IMG/VR virus record: IMGVR_UViG_2526164617_000010
Origin: a virus
Lineage: Duplodnaviria; Heunggongvirae; Uroviricota; Caudoviricetes
Direction: 5' to 3' (one strand)
Length of the DNA stretch: 8,888 nt
Positions 1 through 8,888 of the stretch are shown piece by piece; position 1 is the stretch's first letter, and each line of letters opens with the position of its first letter. The notes under the pieces were generated by a model. It saw nothing but the letters and a program-made list of their open reading frames with translations, made no database searches and was not told where the DNA came from. The position numbers and the translations under genes are program-made.

Positions 1-278
1 AGAGCGCATGACAAAAGAGCTGACAGGTAAAGCCCTGTTTATGGCGCTCAGGAGCCAGCGCCCACCTGCCGGGCTAATCCACCACTCTGATCGAGGTTCA
101 CAGTACTGCGCATACGATTACCGGGTCATACAGGAGCAGTCTGGTCTGAAAACATCAATGTCGCGTAAAGGTAACTGTTACGACAACGCTCCGATGGAAA
201 GCTTCTGGGGAACGCTGAAAAATGAGAGCCTGAGCCACTATCGTTTTAATAACCGGGATGAAGCCATCTCAGTAATAC

Positions 279-287
279 GGGAATACA
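279..287. repeat. IS1 target-site duplication, left copy (GGGAATACA)
   Basis: Identical 9-mer at 1056-1064, immediately outside both IS1 ends. A 9-bp duplication is what IS1 normally makes. Confidence 0.9.
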
Positions 288-302
288 GGTAATGACTCCA
301 AC

Positions 303-806
303 TTATTGATAGTGTTTTATGTTCAGATAATGCCCGATGACTTTGTCATGCAGCTCCACCGATTTTGAGAACGACAGCGACTTCCGTCCCAGCCGTGCCA
401 GGTGCTGCCTCAGATTCAGGTTATGCCGCTCAATTCGCTGCGTATATCGCTTGCTGATTACGTGCAGCTTTCCCTTCAGGCGGGATTCATACAGCGGCCA
501 GCCATCCGTCATCCATATCACCACGTCAAAGGGTGACAGCAGGCTCATAAGACGCCCCAGCGTCGCCATAGTGCGTTCACCGAATACGTGCGCAACAACC
601 GTCTTCCGGAGACTGTCATACGCGTAAAACAGCCAGCGCTGGCGCGATTTAGCCCCGACATAGCCCCACTGTTCGTCCATTTCCGCGCAGACGATGACGT
701 CACTGCCCGGCTGTATGCGCGAGGTTACCGACTGCGGCCTGAGTTTTTTAAGTGACGTAAAATCGTGTTGAGGCCAACGCCCATAATGCGTGCTGTTGCC
801 CGGCAT
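303..806 (-). CDS. insB: IS1 InsB' frame, normally expressed as the InsAB' transposase through programmed -1 frameshifting
   Basis: 167-codon frame with an IS1 InsB-like sequence (...[44 protein letters not shown]...), overlapping the insA 3' end. Confidence 0.9.
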
Positions 807-1000
807 CCAACGCCATTCATGGCCATATCAATGATTTTCTGGTGCGTACCGGGTTGGGAAGCGGTGTAAGTGAACTGCAGTTGCCATGTTTTACGGCAGT
901 GAGAGCAGAGATAGCGCTGATGTCCGGCAGTGCTTTTGCCGTTACGCACCACCCCGTCAGTAGCTGAACAGGAGGGACAGCTGATAGAAACAGAAGCCAC
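725..1000 (-). CDS. insA: IS1 InsA (transposition regulator, zinc-finger/HTH)
   Basis: 91-aa [43 protein letters not shown]... matches IS1 InsA in length and sequence. Confidence 0.95.
743..749 (-). promoter_or_regulatory. IS1 programmed -1 ribosomal frameshift motif (A AAA AAC)
   Basis: The minus strand reads TTAAAAAAC at the insA/insB overlap. This is the known IS1 frameshift window. Confidence 0.7.
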
Positions 1001-1055
1001 TGGAGCACCTCAAAAACACCATCATACACTAAATCAGTAAGTTGGCAGCATCACC

Positions 1056-1064
1056 GGGAATACA
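1056..1064. repeat. IS1 target-site duplication, right copy (GGGAATACA)
   Basis: Identical to 279-287. Confidence 0.9.
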
Positions 1065-1155
1065 TTGAGATTTTCTACAATCGTCAGCGTCGTCACTCTC
1101 GTCTGGGGAATATCTCCCCGGCAGCCTTCAGGGAAAAATATCATCAGATGGCTGC

Positions 1156-1344
1156 TTAAAAAAAGAACAAATGGTAGTGTCCGCTATTGCCAGTACACCT
1201 CAGGGTATAAGGGGTTATGGCCACCGGACTACCAAACGGCTGCCAGCCCTCTTTCAGTTTATGTGTCAGCTTTTCCGCAAGATCTGACGGCGGCGCCGCC
1301 CTGACAACATCATAGTGTTTAAATGCCATGGTTCTTTCCACCAT
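1156..1344 (-). CDS. Small prophage-type ORF (possibly DUF1737-like); only 1203-1344 is native, the last 14 codons are encoded by the IS600-like terminus
   Basis: Track ORF MVERTMAFKHYDVVRAAPPSDLAEKLTHKLKEGWQPFGSPVAITPYTL|RCTGNSGHYHLFFF. The junction with the IS end (1202/1203) falls in codon 48. GGAAAG lies upstream of the internal ATG (MAFKHY...). The family assignment is a weak recollection. Confidence 0.4.
   Translation of the reverse strand: MVERTMAFKHYDVVRAAPPSDLAEKLTHKLKEGWQPFGSPVAITPYTLRCTGNSGHYHLFFF
1171..1202 (+). repeat. IS600-like right terminal inverted repeat
   Basis: The reverse complement TGAGGTGTACTGGCAATAGCGGACACTACC aligns with TGAGGTAGCCTGAGTTTAACGGACACTCC at 8159-8187 (positions 1-6 and 20-27 identical). 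Confidence 0.6.
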
Positions 1345-1589
1345 CTGAAAAATAATTCTTTAAAATACCTGACATGTAATACAGAAAAAACACAAAACCA
1401 TACCTTAAATAAAAACCTGATTATCAAGCAGATATGCATGGATAAACTACAAGACGAGATATAAACCACCCTGCATTTAAATAAACAATAAACAACATCA
1501 GAAAAATAATTCTGCTCTATGGTTTACATTCAAAAATATCATTTATACTTTTCAGAACATCACCAGCAAGGCATAAACAAGGAAACTAA

Positions 1590-1925
1590 ATGAAGTGGAT
1601 TGTGATTGATACAGTTATCCAGCCATCATGCGGAATATCTTTTTCAGTCATATGGAGTAAAATAAAATTAATAATCTGGTATCAATCGGATGCTTTCTTA
1701 CCTCCTGAAAGTATATTTACACTGACTCACACAGGCATCATGCTCAATAACAAAGTGCTACCTGTAACCATTTACAACGTAGTACCATTCAATAAAACAT
1801 TCTGGAATTCAATCAAAAATAGCCAGGAATGCCCTACAAATACAGATAACGTATTGAATGAATGCTTTAATAACCGTTGCACTCTGCAAATATGTCCTTA
1901 TGGACTAAAACAACAAAGTCCATAA
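1590..1925 (+). CDS. Hypothetical 111-aa protein in an AT-rich island (no family recognised)
   Basis: ATG is preceded by AAGGAAA with about 6-nt spacing. The ORF ends inside a 12-bp perfect hairpin. Composition is I/N/W-rich with a Cys-rich C-terminus (ECPTN...[16 protein letters not shown]), and 6 of 13 Ile codons are ATA. It could be a chance ORF in AT-rich DNA. Confidence 0.3.
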
Positions 1926-1928
1926 GGA
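1895..1928. repeat. Perfect 12-bp inverted repeat (stem 1895-1906 / 1917-1928, 10-nt loop AAAACAACAA)
   Basis: TCCTTATGGACT ... AGTCCATAAGGA read directly. It overlaps the stop codon of ORF 1590-1925. Confidence 0.85.
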
Positions 1929-1940
1929 GTTTACTCACAT

Positions 1941-1981
1941 CTGACAAAATCAATATAAACAGCCCCTCCGGAGAGGGGCTG
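1941..1981 (-). terminator. Rho-independent terminator for minus-strand transcription (GC-rich hairpin plus T-tract)
   Basis: Stem CAGCCCCTC / GAGGGGCTG (1960-1968 / 1973-1981) with loop CGGA. On the minus strand it is followed by TTTATATTGATTTTGTC (1959 down to 1943). There is no T-tract on the plus side. Confidence 0.55.
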
Positions 1982-2261
1982 GAGAGTGGCGCTATGTGCC
2001 ATTGCATGGTGCCGGGTGCCTCCCGGTGAATTCAGTACCAGCACCTGAATCCGCGATTATCCCATATACCTACTCGCTGATTGCCCCTCCGCACAGGGGG
2101 ATTCACCATGCCAGTTTCTTTTAACAAACTCCCCGCAAACCAGACAACAGTCAACCGCCTGAATTGTGAAGTATTTAAAAATTTCTCCCGCTAACTGATA
2201 CCCGGCTAACAGTCTGGCGTTTTCTTTTTCAGCAACGGGAAAGCAACAACCACCACACCCG

Positions 2262-2269
2262 CCACCAGC
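2262..2269 (-). other. Chi octamer (5'-GCTGGTGG-3' on the minus strand)
   Basis: The plus strand reads CCACCAGC at 2262-2269. It is the only Chi I found in the window, embedded in a CA-rich tract (2244-2287). Confidence 0.9.
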
Positions 2270-2372
2270 ACACCGTCAGCCAGCACTGACATTATCCGGC
2301 TGCTGCAATGCCATTCACAAAAACAGTAAGCAATCACTTTTTACCGTAACAGGTGATAATCCAGATATGTAT

Positions 2373-2726
2373 CTACCCCAGATGAGTAATCCGAAGTTCA
2401 TCCATACCACAGGTCCTGGCTATTCTGTTGTACTCCTGAACAAGAGCAAATAATTCTGAATTAGCAACCATGAACTCATCGCAAACCCTCTGTATAGCAT
2501 CACTATTCAGAATAATAACGTCTCTTCCCGAAAGACGATCAGGAGTACAGAACAAAACTGTCAAACGGCTGAAGGCCTTTGCTCGTGCTGCATTGACTAT
2601 ATCAATACGCTGCCTAAGGATGAAACACCCCGACGCCTCATCAATATTCACTCTACCCACACCATATGAATGATAAATATTTAATGCTGAAAAAACCATT
2701 AGACCGTATAACAAACACTCAATCAA
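2373..2726 (-). CDS. Hypothetical protein, 117 codons from TTG (108 aa from the ATG at 2699); unrecognised cargo ORF downstream of the phage tRNAs
   Basis: Longest ORF in the region and co-directional with Q and the tRNAs. Six of 11 Arg codons are AGA/AGG and 3 of 11 Ile codons are ATA, matching the adjacent tRNA specificities. No convincing Shine-Dalgarno before either start. No family recognised. Confidence 0.35.
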   Translation of the reverse strand: MIECLLYGLMVFSALNIYHSYGVGRVNIDEASGCFILRQRIDIVNAARAKAFSRLTVLFCTPDRLSGRDVIILNSDAIQRVCDEFMVANSELFALVQEYNRIARTCGMDELRITHLG

Positions 2727-2836
2727 TACTTAACAGAACTTTTATTTTTGACAAACATAAAATATTTTCAACAATATCCTGAGCCAGGTATATTTCAGTA
2801 TAAGGCTCTGCCGGAAGGAATCTGGAAGAATGAATA

Positions 2837-2913
2837 TGGCGCGCTGTACTGGATTCGAACCAGTGACCGATTGCTTAGAAGGCAATTGCTCTGTCCGGCT
2901 GAGCTAACAACGC
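2837..2913 (-). tRNA. tRNA-Arg (anticodon UCU, reads AGA), phage-type variant
   Basis: Hand-folded cloverleaf: acceptor GCGTTGT/ACAGCGC (one G-U pair), D-stem GCTC/GAGC, anticodon stem ATTGC/GCAAT with loop CTTCTAA, T-stem ACTGG/CCAGT with loop TTCGAAT, discriminator G, encoded CCA. 77 nt. Confidence 0.9.
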
Positions 2914-3013
2914 TGAATACCGATAATGGACCGCCATCGGGGACCCGCCCCCGCACCAACAACCCTGTTATCGTGTCGTCTGCTCTTCCTGATAAGCTAA
3001 TGGCGGTTTGTGA

Positions 3014-3089
3014 TGGTGGCCCTTGCTGGATTTGAACCAGCGACCTGGCGATTATGAGTCGCTCGCTCTCACCACTGAGCTAAAGGGCC
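3014..3089 (-). tRNA. tRNA with anticodon CAU, most like tRNA-Ile2 (lysidine type, reads AUA); elongator tRNA-Met not excluded
   Basis: GGCCCTTTAGCTCAGTGGTGAGAGCGAGCGACTCATAATCGCCAGGTCGCTGGTTCAAATCCAGCAAGGGCCACCA. Acceptor GGCCCTT/AAGGGCC, T-loop TTCAAAT, anticodon loop CTCATAA. Closely resembles the E. coli ileX/ileY sequence as I recall it. 76 nt with encoded CCA. Confidence 0.85.
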
Positions 3090-3124
3090 GGGAGCAGAAT
3101 AATAACGGTCCGTAATTAATTCCG

Positions 3125-3152
3125 CAATAAAAAACCCGCTCGGCGGCGGGTT
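3125..3152 (-). terminator. Rho-independent terminator between Q and the tRNAs (candidate tR')
   Basis: The minus strand reads AACCCGC-CGCCGA-GCGGGTT followed by TTTTATTG: a 7-bp GC-rich stem, 6-nt loop and U-tract. Confidence 0.6.
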
Positions 3153-3191
3153 GTAGAAACTCTTCTAACGTCAGGCATAAAACGCCCATAG

Positions 3192-4046
3192 TTATGACGA
3201 ATTTACCACAGATTCCGGAAAAATCAACCTAGTTACCTTTTTTAACTGCCGCTCAGCCCATGCTTCTTCAATATCAAACCGGGTCACCAGCGCATCATAG
3301 AATTTCTTAACTGTTTTTTCCCATGACGCGCGTGTTATCTGGTTTGTCACCTCGCATATAGCATTAAATGCCTCCGTTGATGGTAGTCTTTCATAGCCAC
3401 GACCACCACAACGCTGGCAGTCTCTGATAACAGGCATACCACGTTTTACCGACTCTTCACGATGAATGGCGACACCACGCCCACGGCAATCCTTACAGGC
3501 GGTGGAAACCTCACCCTTTCCGCCACACTCCGGACAGGCAACTTTTACCACCTCCCTGACTTTTTTCCATTCTTCCCAGTAAGACGGATACACACCTTTC
3601 GTACACTTTGCCCATACCGGCGGCTTACCATCCGGATACTGGACCTTGTTTGTAAAAACTACGCTTTCAATAAATTTTTCCCCATAGCAACAAGGGCACT
3701 GCTTTTTACTCGCTGCGCTGCGGGCATAATCCTCAAAAGCGTACGAAGCCATAATGCGCATCACTACCGGTTTTATTTCTGCCGGAAGTTTTCTCAACGC
3801 CGCCACACGATCGCACCGACTGAGTGCATAATCTGCCAGTAATTCTGTTGCCCGCGCCCTGTCATTCATACTGATGCCCATTTTCCCCAGGAACGCAGAA
3901 AACCCCATCTCAGCCCGATTCTGTGTCATGCCCTGCGCGGCCATCACATCAGTGATACTCAGCGCATCTTTTGACGTTGAGGCCGATGCATCGGTCAGGC
4001 AAGGGGATTTTGGGGAGTAGTATTTCGGTAAATCTTCCAGTTTCAT
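3192..4046 (-). CDS. Q: Late-gene antitermination protein Q (long, zinc-binding Q family of phage-82/Stx-phage type)
   Basis: 284 aa. N-terminus MKLEDLPKYYSPKSP...DVMAAQGM and three CxxCxGxG motifs (CPECGGKG, CKDCRGRG, CQRCGGRG). The start overlaps the rusA stop (ATGA). Followed by a candidate pR'/tR' and phage tRNAs, as in lambdoid late regions. Confidence 0.8.
   Translation of the reverse strand: MKLEDLPKYYSPKSPCLTDASASTSKDALSITDVMAAQGMTQNRAEMGFSAFLGKMGISMNDRARATELLADYALSRCDRVAALRKLPAEIKPVVMRIMASYAFEDYARSAASKKQCPCCYGEKFIESVVFTNKVQYPDGKPPVWAKCTKGVYPSYWEEWKKVREVVKVACPECGGKGEVSTACKDCRGRGVAIHREESVKRGMPVIRDCQRCGGRGYERLPSTEAFNAICEVTNQITRASWEKTVKKFYDALVTRFDIEEAWAERQLKKVTRLIFPESVVNSS
3200..3227 (-). 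promoter_or_regulatory. Candidate sigma70 late promoter (pR'-like) overlapping the 3' end of Q
   Basis: The minus strand reads TTGATT (3227-3222), a 16-bp spacer, then TAAATT (3205-3200). The predicted start is about 40-65 nt upstream of the candidate tR' hairpin. This is motif-level evidence only. Confidence 0.3.
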
Positions 4047-4417
4047 TTTTTGACCTGCTCTTCATGCATTATGGGGTAAATCTTCACCCCCAGACGTCCA
4101 CCAGATACTGGCTGACCACGAACGATATTGATTTCATCAAACTGCTCATCGTCCATTAACACTCCCGCATGTGTCAGTGCATCCAGTGGTGCTTTCAGGA
4201 TATTGTCCAGGTCACGACGGCGCTTATCCGGTGGCTCTGCAATAATCTTTATCGCCAGTCTTCCGGACAGGCTTAATTTCAGTCGCTGCTGACGGACAAT
4301 AAGCGCCACATCCCGGCGATAACGCTCACCGGCTTTTGATACAAAATATGTGTTGTCACGACGTCGCCAGTAAGTATTCACCGTCGGCGGATAAGGTAAA
4401 ATAAACTCATGGCGCAT
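4043..4417 (-). CDS. rusA: Holliday-junction resolvase RusA (crossover junction endodeoxyribonuclease)
   Basis: 124 aa; the PDKRRRDLDN motif and overall sequence closely parallel E. coli RusA. Start overlaps the upstream gene's stop (TGATG). Confidence 0.9.
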   Translation of the reverse strand: MRHEFILPYPPTVNTYWRRRDNTYFVSKAGERYRRDVALIVRQQRLKLSLSGRLAIKIIAEPPDKRRRDLDNILKAPLDALTHAGVLMDDEQFDEINIVRGQPVSGGRLGVKIYPIMHEEQVKK

Positions 4418-4674
4418 CAGCGCAGCACCTCCTGCACCAGTTTTTCAAACTTTCCGACTCTGGTTTCCAGCTCTGCCACACAGTCCACCAGCTCATCTAC
4501 TGCTTTCTGTGCGCGATGCTTCGCCTGCATCAGTTCCCGAAGCGCGGGTACCATATCTTTACGGATAGCGTCTTTTGTTATGCCCGTTTTTTCGAGTTGT
4601 TCAGCATGACGCAGCATTTCCTGCGCGTGTTTACGCAATTGTTCAGGGGTAAAAGTCATTGTCTGGTTGTTCAA
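4417..4674 (-). CDS. Hypothetical prophage protein (predicted helical, coiled-coil-like); start may be the ATG at 4659 rather than the TTG at 4674
   Basis: ORF translationally coupled to rusA. Charged, helical composition (…EQLRKHAQEMLRHAEQLEKTG…AELETRVGKFEKLVQEVLR). No family recognised. Confidence 0.55.
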   Translation of the reverse strand: MNNQTMTFTPEQLRKHAQEMLRHAEQLEKTGITKDAIRKDMVPALRELMQAKHRAQKAVDELVDCVAELETRVGKFEKLVQEVLR

Positions 4675-4789
4675 AAGAAACGCTCCATCTTACTGCTGTC
4701 AGTTCGTTTATTACTGTATCTGCGCGGATTGCCGGGCTTCATGGGAGTGGAAAGCACCCGTGCACTTTCCTGGTCCACAGGCAGAAAAT

Positions 4790-4794
4790 GTCCG
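4790..4794. repeat. IS2 target-site duplication, left copy (GTCCG)
   Basis: Identical pentamer at 8118-8122 abutting the other IS2 end. IS2 makes 5-bp duplications. Confidence 0.85.
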
Positions 4795-5008
4795 TAGACT
4801 GGCCCCCTGAATCTCCAGACAACCAGTATCACTTAAATAAGTGATAGTCTTAATACTAGTTTTTAGACTAGTCATTGGAGTACAGATGATTGATGTCTTA
4901 GGGCCGGAGAAACGCAGACGGCGTACCACACAGGAAAAGATCGCAATTGTGTCAACGCCACGATGTTTGACCGTTATTTGCCATTTTCATGCCCGCTAAA
5001 TACTTTCG

Positions 5009-6951
<1,943 letters not shown>

Positions 6952-7193
6952 GTTGATGTCCTTTCTGGTGTGAGAACCTTAAGGAAACAACATGGTGTAG
7001 CAGCCAGCCAGTTATTTCTCTGGCGTAAGCAATACCAGGAAGGAAGTCTTACTGCTGTCGCCGCCGGAGAACAGGTTGTTCCTGCCTCTGAACTTGCTGC
7101 CGCCATGAAGCAGATTAAAGAACTCCAGCGCCTGCTCGGCAAGAAAACGATGGAAAATGAACTCCTCAAAGAAGCCGTTGAATATGGACGGGC

Positions 7194-7200
7194 AAAAAAG
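7194..7200 (+). promoter_or_regulatory. IS2 programmed -1 frameshift heptamer (A AAA AAG) at the insC/insD overlap
   Basis: AAAAAAG read in the insC frame (codons AAA AAG at 7195-7200). The insD frame opens at 7200. Confidence 0.7.
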
Positions 7201-8106
7201 TGGATAGCGCACGCGCCCTTATTGCCCGGGGATGGGGAGTAAGCTTAGTCAGCCGTTGTCTCCGGGTGTCGCGTGCGCAGTTGCACGTCATTCTCAGACG
7301 AACCGATGACTGGATGGATGGCCGCCGCAGTCGTCACACTGATGATACGGATGTGCTTCTCCGTATACACCATGTTATCGGAGAGCTGCCCACGTATGGT
7401 TATCGTCGGGTATGGGCGCTGCTTCGCAGACAGGCAGAACTTGATGGTATGCCTGCGATCAATGCCAAACGTGTTTACCGGATCATGCGCCAGAATGCGC
7501 TGTTGCTTGAGCGAAAACCTGCTGTACCGCCATCGAAACGGGCACATACAGGCAGAGTGGCCGTGAAAGAAAGCAATCAGCGATGGTGCTCTGACGGGTT
7601 CGAGTTCTGCTGTGATAACGGAGAGAGACTGCGTGTCACGTTCGCGCTGGACTGCTGTGATCGTGAGGCACTGCACTGGGCGGTGACTACCGGCGGCTTC
7701 AACAGTGAAACAGTACAGGACGTCATGCTGGGAGCGGTGGAACGCCGCTTCGGCAACGATCTTCCGTCGTCTCCAGTGGAGTGGCTGACGGATAATGGTT
7801 CATGCTACCGGGCTAATGAAACACGCCAGTTCGCCCGGATGTTGGGACTTGAACCGAAGAACACGGCGGTGCGGAGTCCGGAGAGTAACGGAATAGCAGA
7901 GAGCTTCGTGAAAACGATAAAGCGTGACTACATCAGTATCATGCCCAAACCAGACGGGTTTAACGGCAGCAAAGAACCTTGCAGAGGCGTTCGAGCATTA
8001 TAACGAATGGCATCCGCATAGTGCGCTGGGTTATCGCTCGCCACGGGAATATCTGCGGCAGCGGGCTTGTAATGGGTTAAGTGATAACAGATGTCTGGAA
8101 ATATAG
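7200..8106 (+). pseudogene. insD: IS2 insD (DDE transposase) carrying a 1-bp insertion frameshift
   Basis: Track ORFs 7200-8003 and 7924-8106 together cover InsD but in two frames. The span is 907 nt instead of 906, and GGGTTTAACGG at 7956-7966 has one more T than the sequence needed to encode ...[15 protein letters not shown]... in one frame. Confidence 0.8.
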
Positions 8107-8117
8107 GGGCAAATCCA

Positions 8118-8122
8118 GTCCG
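8118..8122. repeat. IS2 target-site duplication, right copy (GTCCG)
   Basis: Identical to 4790-4794. Confidence 0.85.
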
Positions 8123-8222
8123 TTATAAAAACGCCGGTAAATCGTTCCCAGAGAACCGTGAGGTAGCCTGAGTTTAACGGACACTCCTTCCTGAAATAGA
8201 ATGGCATCAGAAGGAGCTAATA

Positions 8223-8558
8223 ATGAGCAGAAAAACCCAACGTTACTCTAAAGAGTTCAAAGCCGAAGCTGTCAGAACGGTTCCTGAAAATCAACTTTCG
8301 ATCAGTGAAGGCGCTTCCCGATTATCTCTTCCTGAAGGCACTTTAGGACAATGGGTTACCGCCGCCAGAAAAGGGCTCGGTACTCCTGGTTCCCGCACGG
8401 TGGCTGAACTGGAATCTGAAATTCTGCAACTGCGTAAGGCGTTAAATGAAGCTCGCCTTGAGCGAGATAATATTAAAAAAAGCAACAGCGTATTTTGCAC
8501 AGGAGTCGCTGAAAAATACGCGTTAATCGAACAATGGGCGACAACAATTTCCCATTGA
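8223..8558 (+). CDS. IS600-like transposase OrfA (HTH N-terminus intact; C-terminus appears frame-shifted in this copy)
   Basis: MSRKTQRYSKEFKAEAVRTV...ELESEILQLRKALNEARLERD, then an atypical tail NIKKSNSV...TTISH. The conserved IS3-family ending ILKKATAYFAQESLKNTR is encoded one frame over from 8470. An A7G slippery run lies at 8475-8482. Confidence 0.7.
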   Translation: MSRKTQRYSKEFKAEAVRTVPENQLSISEGASRLSLPEGTLGQWVTAARKGLGTPGSRTVAELESEILQLRKALNEARLERDNIKKSNSVFCTGVAEKYALIEQWATTISH

Positions 8559-8562
8559 AGCG

Positions 8563-8888
8563 ATGTGTCAGGTATTTGGTGTATCCAGGAGCGGTTATTA
8601 CAACTGGGTACAGCATGAACCCTCAGACAGAAAACAAAGTGATGAGTGGCTAAAACTGGAGATTAAGGTGGCACATATCCGCACTCGCGAAACATATGGA
8701 ACCCGGCGGCTCCAGACGGAGCTGGCAGAGAATGGCATCATTGTTGGTCGTGACCGACTGGCACGTCTTCGTAAGGAGCTAAGGCTACGCTGTAAGCAGA
8801 AACGCAAGTTCAGAGCGACTACGAACTCGAACCACAATCTGCCAGTTGCGCCAAATCTGCTGAACCAGACGTTCGCTCCTACAGCACC
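8563..8888 (+). CDS. IS600-like transposase OrfB, N-terminal part (3' end outside the window)
   Basis: Hand translation from the ATG at 8563: MCQVFGVSRSGYYNWVQHEPSDRKQSDEWLKLEIKVAHIRTRETYGTRRLQTELAENGIIVGRDRLARLRKELRLRCKQKRKFRATTNSNHNLPVAPNLLNQTFAPTA. This is a typical IS3-family OrfB N-terminus. It is missing from the ORF track only because it runs off the window end. Confidence 0.75.
   Translation, partial: MCQVFGVSRSGYYNWVQHEPSDRKQSDEWLKLEIKVAHIRTRETYGTRRLQTELAENGIIVGRDRLARLRKELRLRCKQKRKFRATTNSNHNLPVAPNLLNQTFAPTA

Follow-up and report, generated by a model that had tools for sequence, protein, structure and literature searches.

IS600 copies bracketing a prophage segment in Shigella sonnei as probable rearrangement junctions and direct repeats for its deletion

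The window analysed here is a stretch of 8888 bp from the Shigella sonnei chromosome. Near its two ends lie parts of two directly oriented copies of the insertion sequence (IS) IS600, copy B on the left and copy A on the right, which bracket a 6956-bp segment (1203-8158, hereafter the module) with the late antiterminator gene Q and two tRNA genes of a lambdoid prophage remnant. The two copies are very probably old IS600 rearrangement junctions that now act as direct repeats, allowing the module to be deleted by recombination, and one S. sonnei chromosome carries the corresponding deletion. IS600 is one of five IS that have expanded in all Shigella species, and in these species IS are a known cause of rearrangements and of deletions between homologous copies (Hawkey et al., 2020; PMC7373316). 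The finding is ordinary IS-driven genome decay, already known in kind.

The window is the whole draft contig AKND01000016.1 of assembly GCA_000268005.1 (locus L019), in reverse-complement orientation. The assembly broke within the repeat, which is why both contig ends are located in IS600, and no further contig sequence exists. According to the Pfam content of the neighbouring genes, the locus is situated between yecE-yecN-cmoA-cmoB and dinI-yecD-aspS. The window is the middle of a heavily decayed prophage island between yecD and yecE. No complete E. coli genome was found to hold more than 72% of the window in one place. The IS600 pieces and the IS1 that divides one of them are as follows.

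1-287, plus strand: orfB segment of IS600 copy B (IS600 positions ~840-1126), truncated at the left by the end of the contig; matches full IS600 of complete S. sonnei genomes at 100% identity, with Pfam rve/rve_3.
288-1055, minus strand: complete IS1 of 768 bp inside IS600 copy B, with insA at 1000-725 and insB at 806-303 (open reading frames, ORFs; Pfam Zn_ribbon_InsA and DDE_Tnp_IS1).
1065-1202, plus strand: final 138 bp of IS600 copy B with the right inverted repeat, ending ...CAGTACACCTCA at 1202 (end read in the sequence).
8159-8888, plus strand: first 730 bp of IS600 copy A (left inverted repeat, orfA and the start of orfB), starting TGAGGTAGCCTGAG..., cut on the right by the contig end.

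A first-pass annotation of the window had described two IS600 copies in direct orientation on the plus strand, with ends at 1202 and 8159. Its coordinates, orientation and identification agree with the ends read here and with complete genomes. It identified the left piece correctly as IS600 and overlooked the IS1 that splits this piece at 288-1055. The IS600 right end can also be read as ...CCGCTATTGCCAGTACACCTCA at 1202 and the left end as TGAGGTAGCCTGAGTTTAACGGACACT... at 8159, both on the plus strand. The terminal inverted repeats are imperfect and of the TG...CA form (TGAGGTAGCC... at 8159 and ...GTACACCTCA at 1202), with ~20 of the first 29 bases matching by eye. With IS1 taken out, both pieces match the full-length IS600 of complete S. 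sonnei genomes, the left one with 0 differences. The right piece shares 98.8-99.1% identity with elements named 'IS3-like element IS600 family' by PGAP. The IS600 products, of 100 amino acids (aa), 272 aa and, when fused, 385 aa, carry the Pfam domains HTH_Tnp_1 plus HTH_21/rve/rve_3, and the PGAP record notes a 'programmed frameshift'.

The window holds IS600 positions ~840-1264 in the left piece (IS1 removed) and 1-730 in the right piece. These pieces have no sequence in common, so a repeat search of the window reported no long direct repeat. The pairing of the IS600 copies is an identification that can be verified only outside the window, which itself holds partial pieces; at the locus, the element is near-identical to the reference and reaches a full length of ~1264 bp. 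Ten S. sonnei chromosome loci were fetched through the Q protein to see the outer halves of the copies. A 107-aa gene ~1 kb outside copy B was used as a second anchor, so that genomes without the module would be visible, and ~36 chromosome-scale places were listed or counted as similar. The locus sample (loci are denoted by L numbers) was drawn only from the longest contigs in the index. Each of the 10 Q-anchored loci has both ends of both IS600 copies, all on the same strand. The full copies A and B at the locus are 1263-1265 bp long and have 0-4 differences between them in complete S. sonnei genomes; neither the element nor its orientation differs between their outer halves, as the first-pass annotation had supposed.

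Over its whole length, the window shares 99.6% identity with S. sonnei 53G (HE616528.1) and with CP044151.1. Compared with 53G, it differs by 6 substitutions, a 27-nt deletion at 5795, and 1-nt insertions at 7959, 8469, and 8536. These insertions are unseen in all complete genomes and shift the frames of IS2 orfB and IS600 orfA. Two of them (8469, which falls within a run of A, and 8536) distinguish copy A from all complete-genome copies. The three insertions may be draft sequencing errors instead of real mutations. In 53G-type complete genomes, the copy A transposase is predicted to read intact; in the window, copy B is broken by IS1.

The draft origin of the window raises the question of whether the apparent pair is an assembly by-product, formed either by a single IS600 on a small circle or by mis-joined repeat ends. 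The contig ends in complementary, non-overlapping IS600 parts, and its 1-nt indels are typical of homopolymer errors, both of which fit such an origin. However, two complete IS600 with distinct outer flanks occur in every chromosome-scale place listed but L028 and L025. Moreover, 53G and CP044151.1 have IS1 in copy B, as in the window, across all 8888 bases. An assembly origin of the pair is therefore extremely unlikely.

Neither IS600 copy has a 3-bp target duplication. Copy B is flanked by TAG and GGG and copy A by CCG and AGG, and the flanks do not match crosswise either. There is also no duplication around the whole unit, whose outer flanks read ...GATTAG before copy B and AGGCCA... after copy A. 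Three control IS600 insertions have clean 3-bp duplications: GTG in a Dam gene (L010), CTC inside the module (L037), and CAT in the helicase gene of E. coli FDAARGOS_944 (L011). The missing duplications bear on the history of copies A and B, not on their identity as IS600.

The genes that adjoin the copies are themselves cut. To the left of copy B, a 234-aa hypothetical gene is reduced to 203 aa. This gene belongs to a different small island, found in E. coli strain 4012 with yciI and tonB on either side. A search of the phage collection gave no match to the outer-left island, and the cluster representative of the 203-aa protein (P0001) led only to short contigs that end at IS600. To the right of copy A comes a tail-fibre gene lacking ~255 N-terminal codons, and beyond it a tail-fibre assembly gene, ipaH, and dinI. 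On the inner sides, copy B adjoins a cut DUF1737 gene at its right and copy A a cut helicase gene at its left. The absence of duplications, together with these truncated and unrelated flanks, indicates that the copies are scars of earlier IS600-mediated rearrangements and not the arms of a transposed composite transposon. Each copy would be the junction left by an earlier IS600-mediated rearrangement or deletion, and the module would not have been carried in by the copies. None of the four flank 3-mers match, so this history needs more than one event.

Two simpler histories were considered and rejected. A single inversion or translocation would be recognized by crosswise matching of the four IS600 flanks, and no 3-mers match. 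A simple inversion in which the 203-aa ORF is the missing N-terminus of the helicase was ruled out, as this ORF has no Pfam or PHROG hit and is a truncated form of the 234-aa gene from the other island. The Q module lies on the strand opposite to the adjoining tail fibre-tfa-ipaH-dinI remnant (L003:3087-4581); it is either inverted or from another prophage. At the same dinI-yecD-aspS site of another genome (L047), a full tail module runs in the direction of the tail-fibre gene. The gene of the tail-fibre assembly protein (P0114) is present in multiple copies at ipaH-bearing prophage ends, which makes it an uninformative anchor for deletions.

The first-pass annotation had called the arrangement a composite-transposon-like unit. 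A composite transposon proper would be a unit of IS600, module, and IS600 that inserted as one piece through its outer ends and could be mobile again. Complete genomes do have the same IS twice, directly oriented and with the outer ends intact, and at least one transposase copy per genome appears undisrupted in most strains, judging from the reading frames. However, no 3-bp duplication surrounds the unit (TAG vs AGG), in contrast to the three control insertions, and the outer flanks are truncated genes from different elements instead of halves of one target. The unit is seen only at the yecD-yecE site among the loci fetched; no second site was found, with every Q- and flank-anchored locus placing the unit in the yecD-yecE island. 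In the strain type of the window, copy B is also broken by IS1. IS3-family elements transpose singly by a copy-out/paste-in route and rarely form compound transposons. The comparison did not survive these observations, and an origin as a composite transposon is most improbable.

The deletion is seen in L028 (S. sonnei CP151334.1), where a single IS600 connects the outer-left flank of copy B (..GCTAAGCTGATTAG) through IS600::IS1 to the outer-right flank of copy A (AGGCCACTGCGG..). The right flank of this locus, AGGCCACTGCGGAAG..., is the outer flank of copy A, and the locus has no match to window 1203-8158. Its IS600 is a hybrid with IS1 at IS600 position 516, as in copy A of other strains, and A-type alleles at 582 and 612, which places the crossover within IS600 positions 1-516. 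The product is the expected outcome of crossing-over between direct repeats, with 8220 bp lost. These repeats are 1264 bp long with 0-4 differences, and in the type represented by the window 1126 bp are uninterrupted before IS1. The pair would thus now provide ~1.26 kb of direct-repeat homology. RecA-type crossing-over would loop out the module plus one IS600 equivalent (8220 bp) and leave a hybrid IS600 behind; the excised DNA would be a circle that is then lost.

The first-pass annotation had expected the presence of the module to vary between isolates, and the absence of window 1203-8158 from L028 bears this out. It had named deletion and tandem amplification among the possible recombination outcomes. 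The former is found in CP151334.1, whereas the latter has no counterpart: no second module copy lies within the 10-kb flanks of the chromosome-scale loci compared with the window. A free circle, the other reciprocal product, would not be visible in assemblies.

Several considerations weigh against the copies being rearrangement junctions that now permit deletion. The deletion comes from one assembly, and the index counts 2 samples that are possibly duplicate records. The structure of L028 could be an assembly collapse or a laboratory-passage event, and the absence of the module in CP151334.1 is established for this locus only. For the strain of the window itself, the outer IS600 halves are inferred from near-identical complete genomes that likewise have IS1 in copy B (53G and CP044151.1). 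Homologous recombination as the mechanism, and its dependence on RecA, would be deduced from the structure of the product.

In a more static view, the IS600 copies would be fixed scars and the module practically constant throughout the species. All but two of the ~36 chromosome-scale places (~34 of ~36 when anchored on the outer flank) have a single module in the same place, and the arrangement is common to old and recent strains, including Ss046 (CP000038) and 53G. However, L028 has an exact IS600 x IS600 junction in place of the module, and in L025 the nin region of another prophage has replaced the inner flank of copy B. The locus varies further through a deletion beside copy B in L004, IS1 in copy A, copy B, or neither, and extra IS600 copies in L035 and L037. 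A frozen locus is therefore unlikely.

These variants differ in kind. L025 (LR213449.1, 12617-20245) retains copy B, whose inner flank is the nin region of a second lambdoid prophage with hok, Rem, DUF968, a 126-aa rusA product, a 273-aa Q, and a methylase. Its arrangement indicates a larger IS600-mediated exchange, probably an inversion or a translocation. In L004 (CP044151.1; 4901-8012 in window orientation), a complete IS600 abuts copy B at B position ~191, and the stretch that begins with the truncated Dam gene and ends with the 203-aa ORF is gone, an IS600-associated deletion beside copy B. L037 has an extra IS600 in direct orientation (L037:13939-15202, ~window 2525) with the CTC duplication. 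It is inserted between the DUF3927 ORF and tRNA-Arg, within an unannotated 117-aa ORF at 2373-2726. L035 has an extra inverted IS600 inside rusA (L035:~16570-17832, ~window 4375).

IS1 adds another layer of variation. In the window, its target duplication is 9 bp (GGGAATACA at 279-287 and 1056-1064), and its ends read GGTAATGACTCC... and ...GGCAGCATCACC. Copy B is without IS1 in most S. sonnei genomes. Many S. sonnei genomes (L002, L005, L008, L009, and others) instead have IS1 in copy A at IS600 position ~516. Three IS1 states therefore exist at the locus, with the element in copy A, in copy B, or in neither, and they could serve as a lineage marker. Gene conversion moving IS1 between the IS600 copies was ruled out by its different positions, ~516 in copy A and ~1126 in copy B, which identify independent insertions.

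The interval between the copies consists of a 3.6-kb lambdoid late-regulatory remnant and 3.3 kb of IS2 with an IS21-type element. The first-pass annotation of a 6.9-kb 'Q-tRNA-cargo module' overlooked that 3.3 of the 6.9 kb is IS2::IS21-type DNA. The prophage remnant proper is 1203-4794 plus 8118-8158. Read along the minus strand, its order is the helicase 3' end, an 85-aa ORF, rusA, Q, tRNA(CAU), tRNA-Arg, DUF3927, STnc100, the iraM-like gene (on the plus strand), and the 5' part of the DUF1737 gene.

1203-1344, minus strand: 5' part of a DUF1737 prophage gene, cut by IS600 copy B (Pfam DUF1737 on the 57/62-aa product).
1590-1925, plus strand: intact iraM-like anti-adapter gene of the PmrD fold family, 111 aa (Pfam PF11183 PmrD; PGAP annotation in relatives).
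1951-2140, minus strand: STnc100-family small RNA (Rfam RF02076, 132 bits vs a gathering score of 47).
2206-2337, minus strand: DUF3927 small ORF, 43 aa (Pfam DUF3927).
2837-2913, minus strand: tRNA-Arg with anticodon UCU (ARAGORN, Rfam tRNA, and a PGAP tRNA-Arg at the equivalent place in L013).
3014-3089, minus strand: tRNA with a CAU anticodon (Met by ARAGORN; the PGAP homologue is tRNA-Ile of the lysidine type; Rfam).
3192-4046, minus strand: intact late antiterminator Q gene, 284 aa (Pfam PF03589 Antiterm).
4043-4417, minus strand: intact rusA Holliday-junction resolvase gene, 124 aa (Pfam PF05866).
4417-4674, minus strand: 85-aa prophage ORF with function unassigned (called in all loci; the same gene follows the helicase in L011).
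4671-4794, minus strand: 3' end of a phage replicative (DnaB-type) helicase gene, proximal part, which resumes at 8118-8158 beyond IS2 (L011 alignment).
8118-8158, minus strand: helicase fragment between IS2 and IS600 copy A, cut by copy A; its first 5 bp are the IS2 duplication (alignment).

The remnant shares 94-98% identity with Escherichia phages vB_EcoS-640R1 and mEp460_ev081 and 99.4% with the prophage of E. coli FDAARGOS_944 (L011). The DUF1737 region is collinear at 99.4% with the DUF1737 pseudogene of this related prophage. Once IS2 and one of the two duplicated 5-bp sequences are taken out, the window gives an unbroken 99.4% alignment to the annotated helicase gene of L011. The exact Q protein occurs in 1407 index blocks under the name 'antitermination protein [Shigella sonnei]' and is identical in many S. 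sonnei chromosomes. The exact 111-aa protein is named 'anti-adapter protein IraM' in source records. The iraM-like gene is a moron that is opposite in strand to the late genes and is conserved in related E. coli prophages. In the minus-strand reading, the STnc100 match comes after Q and the tRNA genes, with the DUF3927 ORF on one side and the iraM-like gene on the other.

The nested IS that interrupt the helicase gene are the following.

4795-8117, plus strand: IS2 interrupting the helicase gene, flanked by its 5-bp target duplication GTCCG at 4790-4794 and 8118-8122 (ends and duplication read in the sequence).
4950-6994, minus strand: IS21-type element inside IS2, with istA at 6951-5782 and istB at 5770-5009 (Pfam rve/Mu-transpos_C_2 and IstB_IS21).

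IS2 is 98.7-99.8% identical to the annotated IS2 of L013 at positions 1-156 and 203-1331. The IS21-type element interrupts its orfA, and it has lost positions 157-202. The IS21-type element is 98.6% identical to the PGAP 'IS21-like element IS21 family' and is without its istA-proximal terminus. Genome L032 (CP180280.1; L032:18436-18544) retains 102 bp extra, which comprise the IS21 end ...GCGCTGACA, a 4-bp ATTG duplication, and IS2 positions 157-202. From this sequence comparison, L032 appears as the ancestral state of the IS21-type/IS2 junction. The window (6988-6994), like most S. sonnei genomes, has lost these 102 bp between two CAACATG repeats. The 27-nt deletion at 5795, relative to complete S. 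sonnei genomes, falls at the istA/istB boundary. The variant 389-aa IstA is also found at a second site of the same assembly as the window (L018) and in one Logan contig (L020). The 27-nt-deleted IstA may represent a genuine IS allele particular to the strain.

With the module, an isolate loses two prophage tRNA genes, the iraM-like gene, Q, and rusA. At least the rusA, Q, and tRNA stretch has paralogues in the second lambdoid prophage (L025). A more consequential role for the 8.2-kb unit of IS600 and module would be that of a translocatable unit, whose circle re-enters at other IS600 copies of S. sonnei or which is amplified in tandem. This is very unlikely. If it were true, the dosage of tRNA-Arg(UCU), tRNA-Ile(CAU), the iraM-like anti-adapter, and Q would change, and the presence, position, and copy number of the unit would be under selection instead of reflecting simple decay.

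As junctions of past rearrangement that have become a new deletion substrate, the IS600 copies would make this locus a clean, fully resolved case in S. sonnei, with little significance beyond bookkeeping. No description of this locus or of its deletion was found in the literature, a search result that does not establish the absence of reports. A short draft contig that ends in IS fragments should be read against complete genomes. The structural polymorphism of the locus could be used for typing isolates, and short-read assemblies will break there.

Several known systems place the locus in context. Its copies resemble IS600, an IS3-family element of Shigella and E. coli, in their length of ~1264 bp, the orfA/orfB frameshift, and the imperfect repeats. 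However, fresh IS600 insertions show 3-bp target duplications, and copies A and B are without any. In the window, one copy is also split by IS1, and the other has two 1-nt insertions, possibly draft errors. The remnant shares the gene order of the lambdoid/Stx-type late module (rusA-Q-tRNA genes-morons-lysis), including tRNA-Ile(CAU) and tRNA-Arg(UCU) downstream of Q. Unlike such a module, it is without stx, and no lysis, head, or tail genes come after it. It is also cut at DUF1737 and in the helicase, and its strand is opposite to that of the adjacent tail-fibre remnant. With Tn9-type compound transposons, whose arms are IS1, the locus shares two direct copies of one IS around a cargo, but it differs in having no duplication around the unit, a single location, unrelated truncated flanks, and an IS3-family mechanism. 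The closest parallel is IS-mediated genome reduction in Shigella (PMC7373316). The locus shows the same features, namely direct repeats of an expanded IS and a single hybrid IS in a natural isolate, and does not differ from it in principle.

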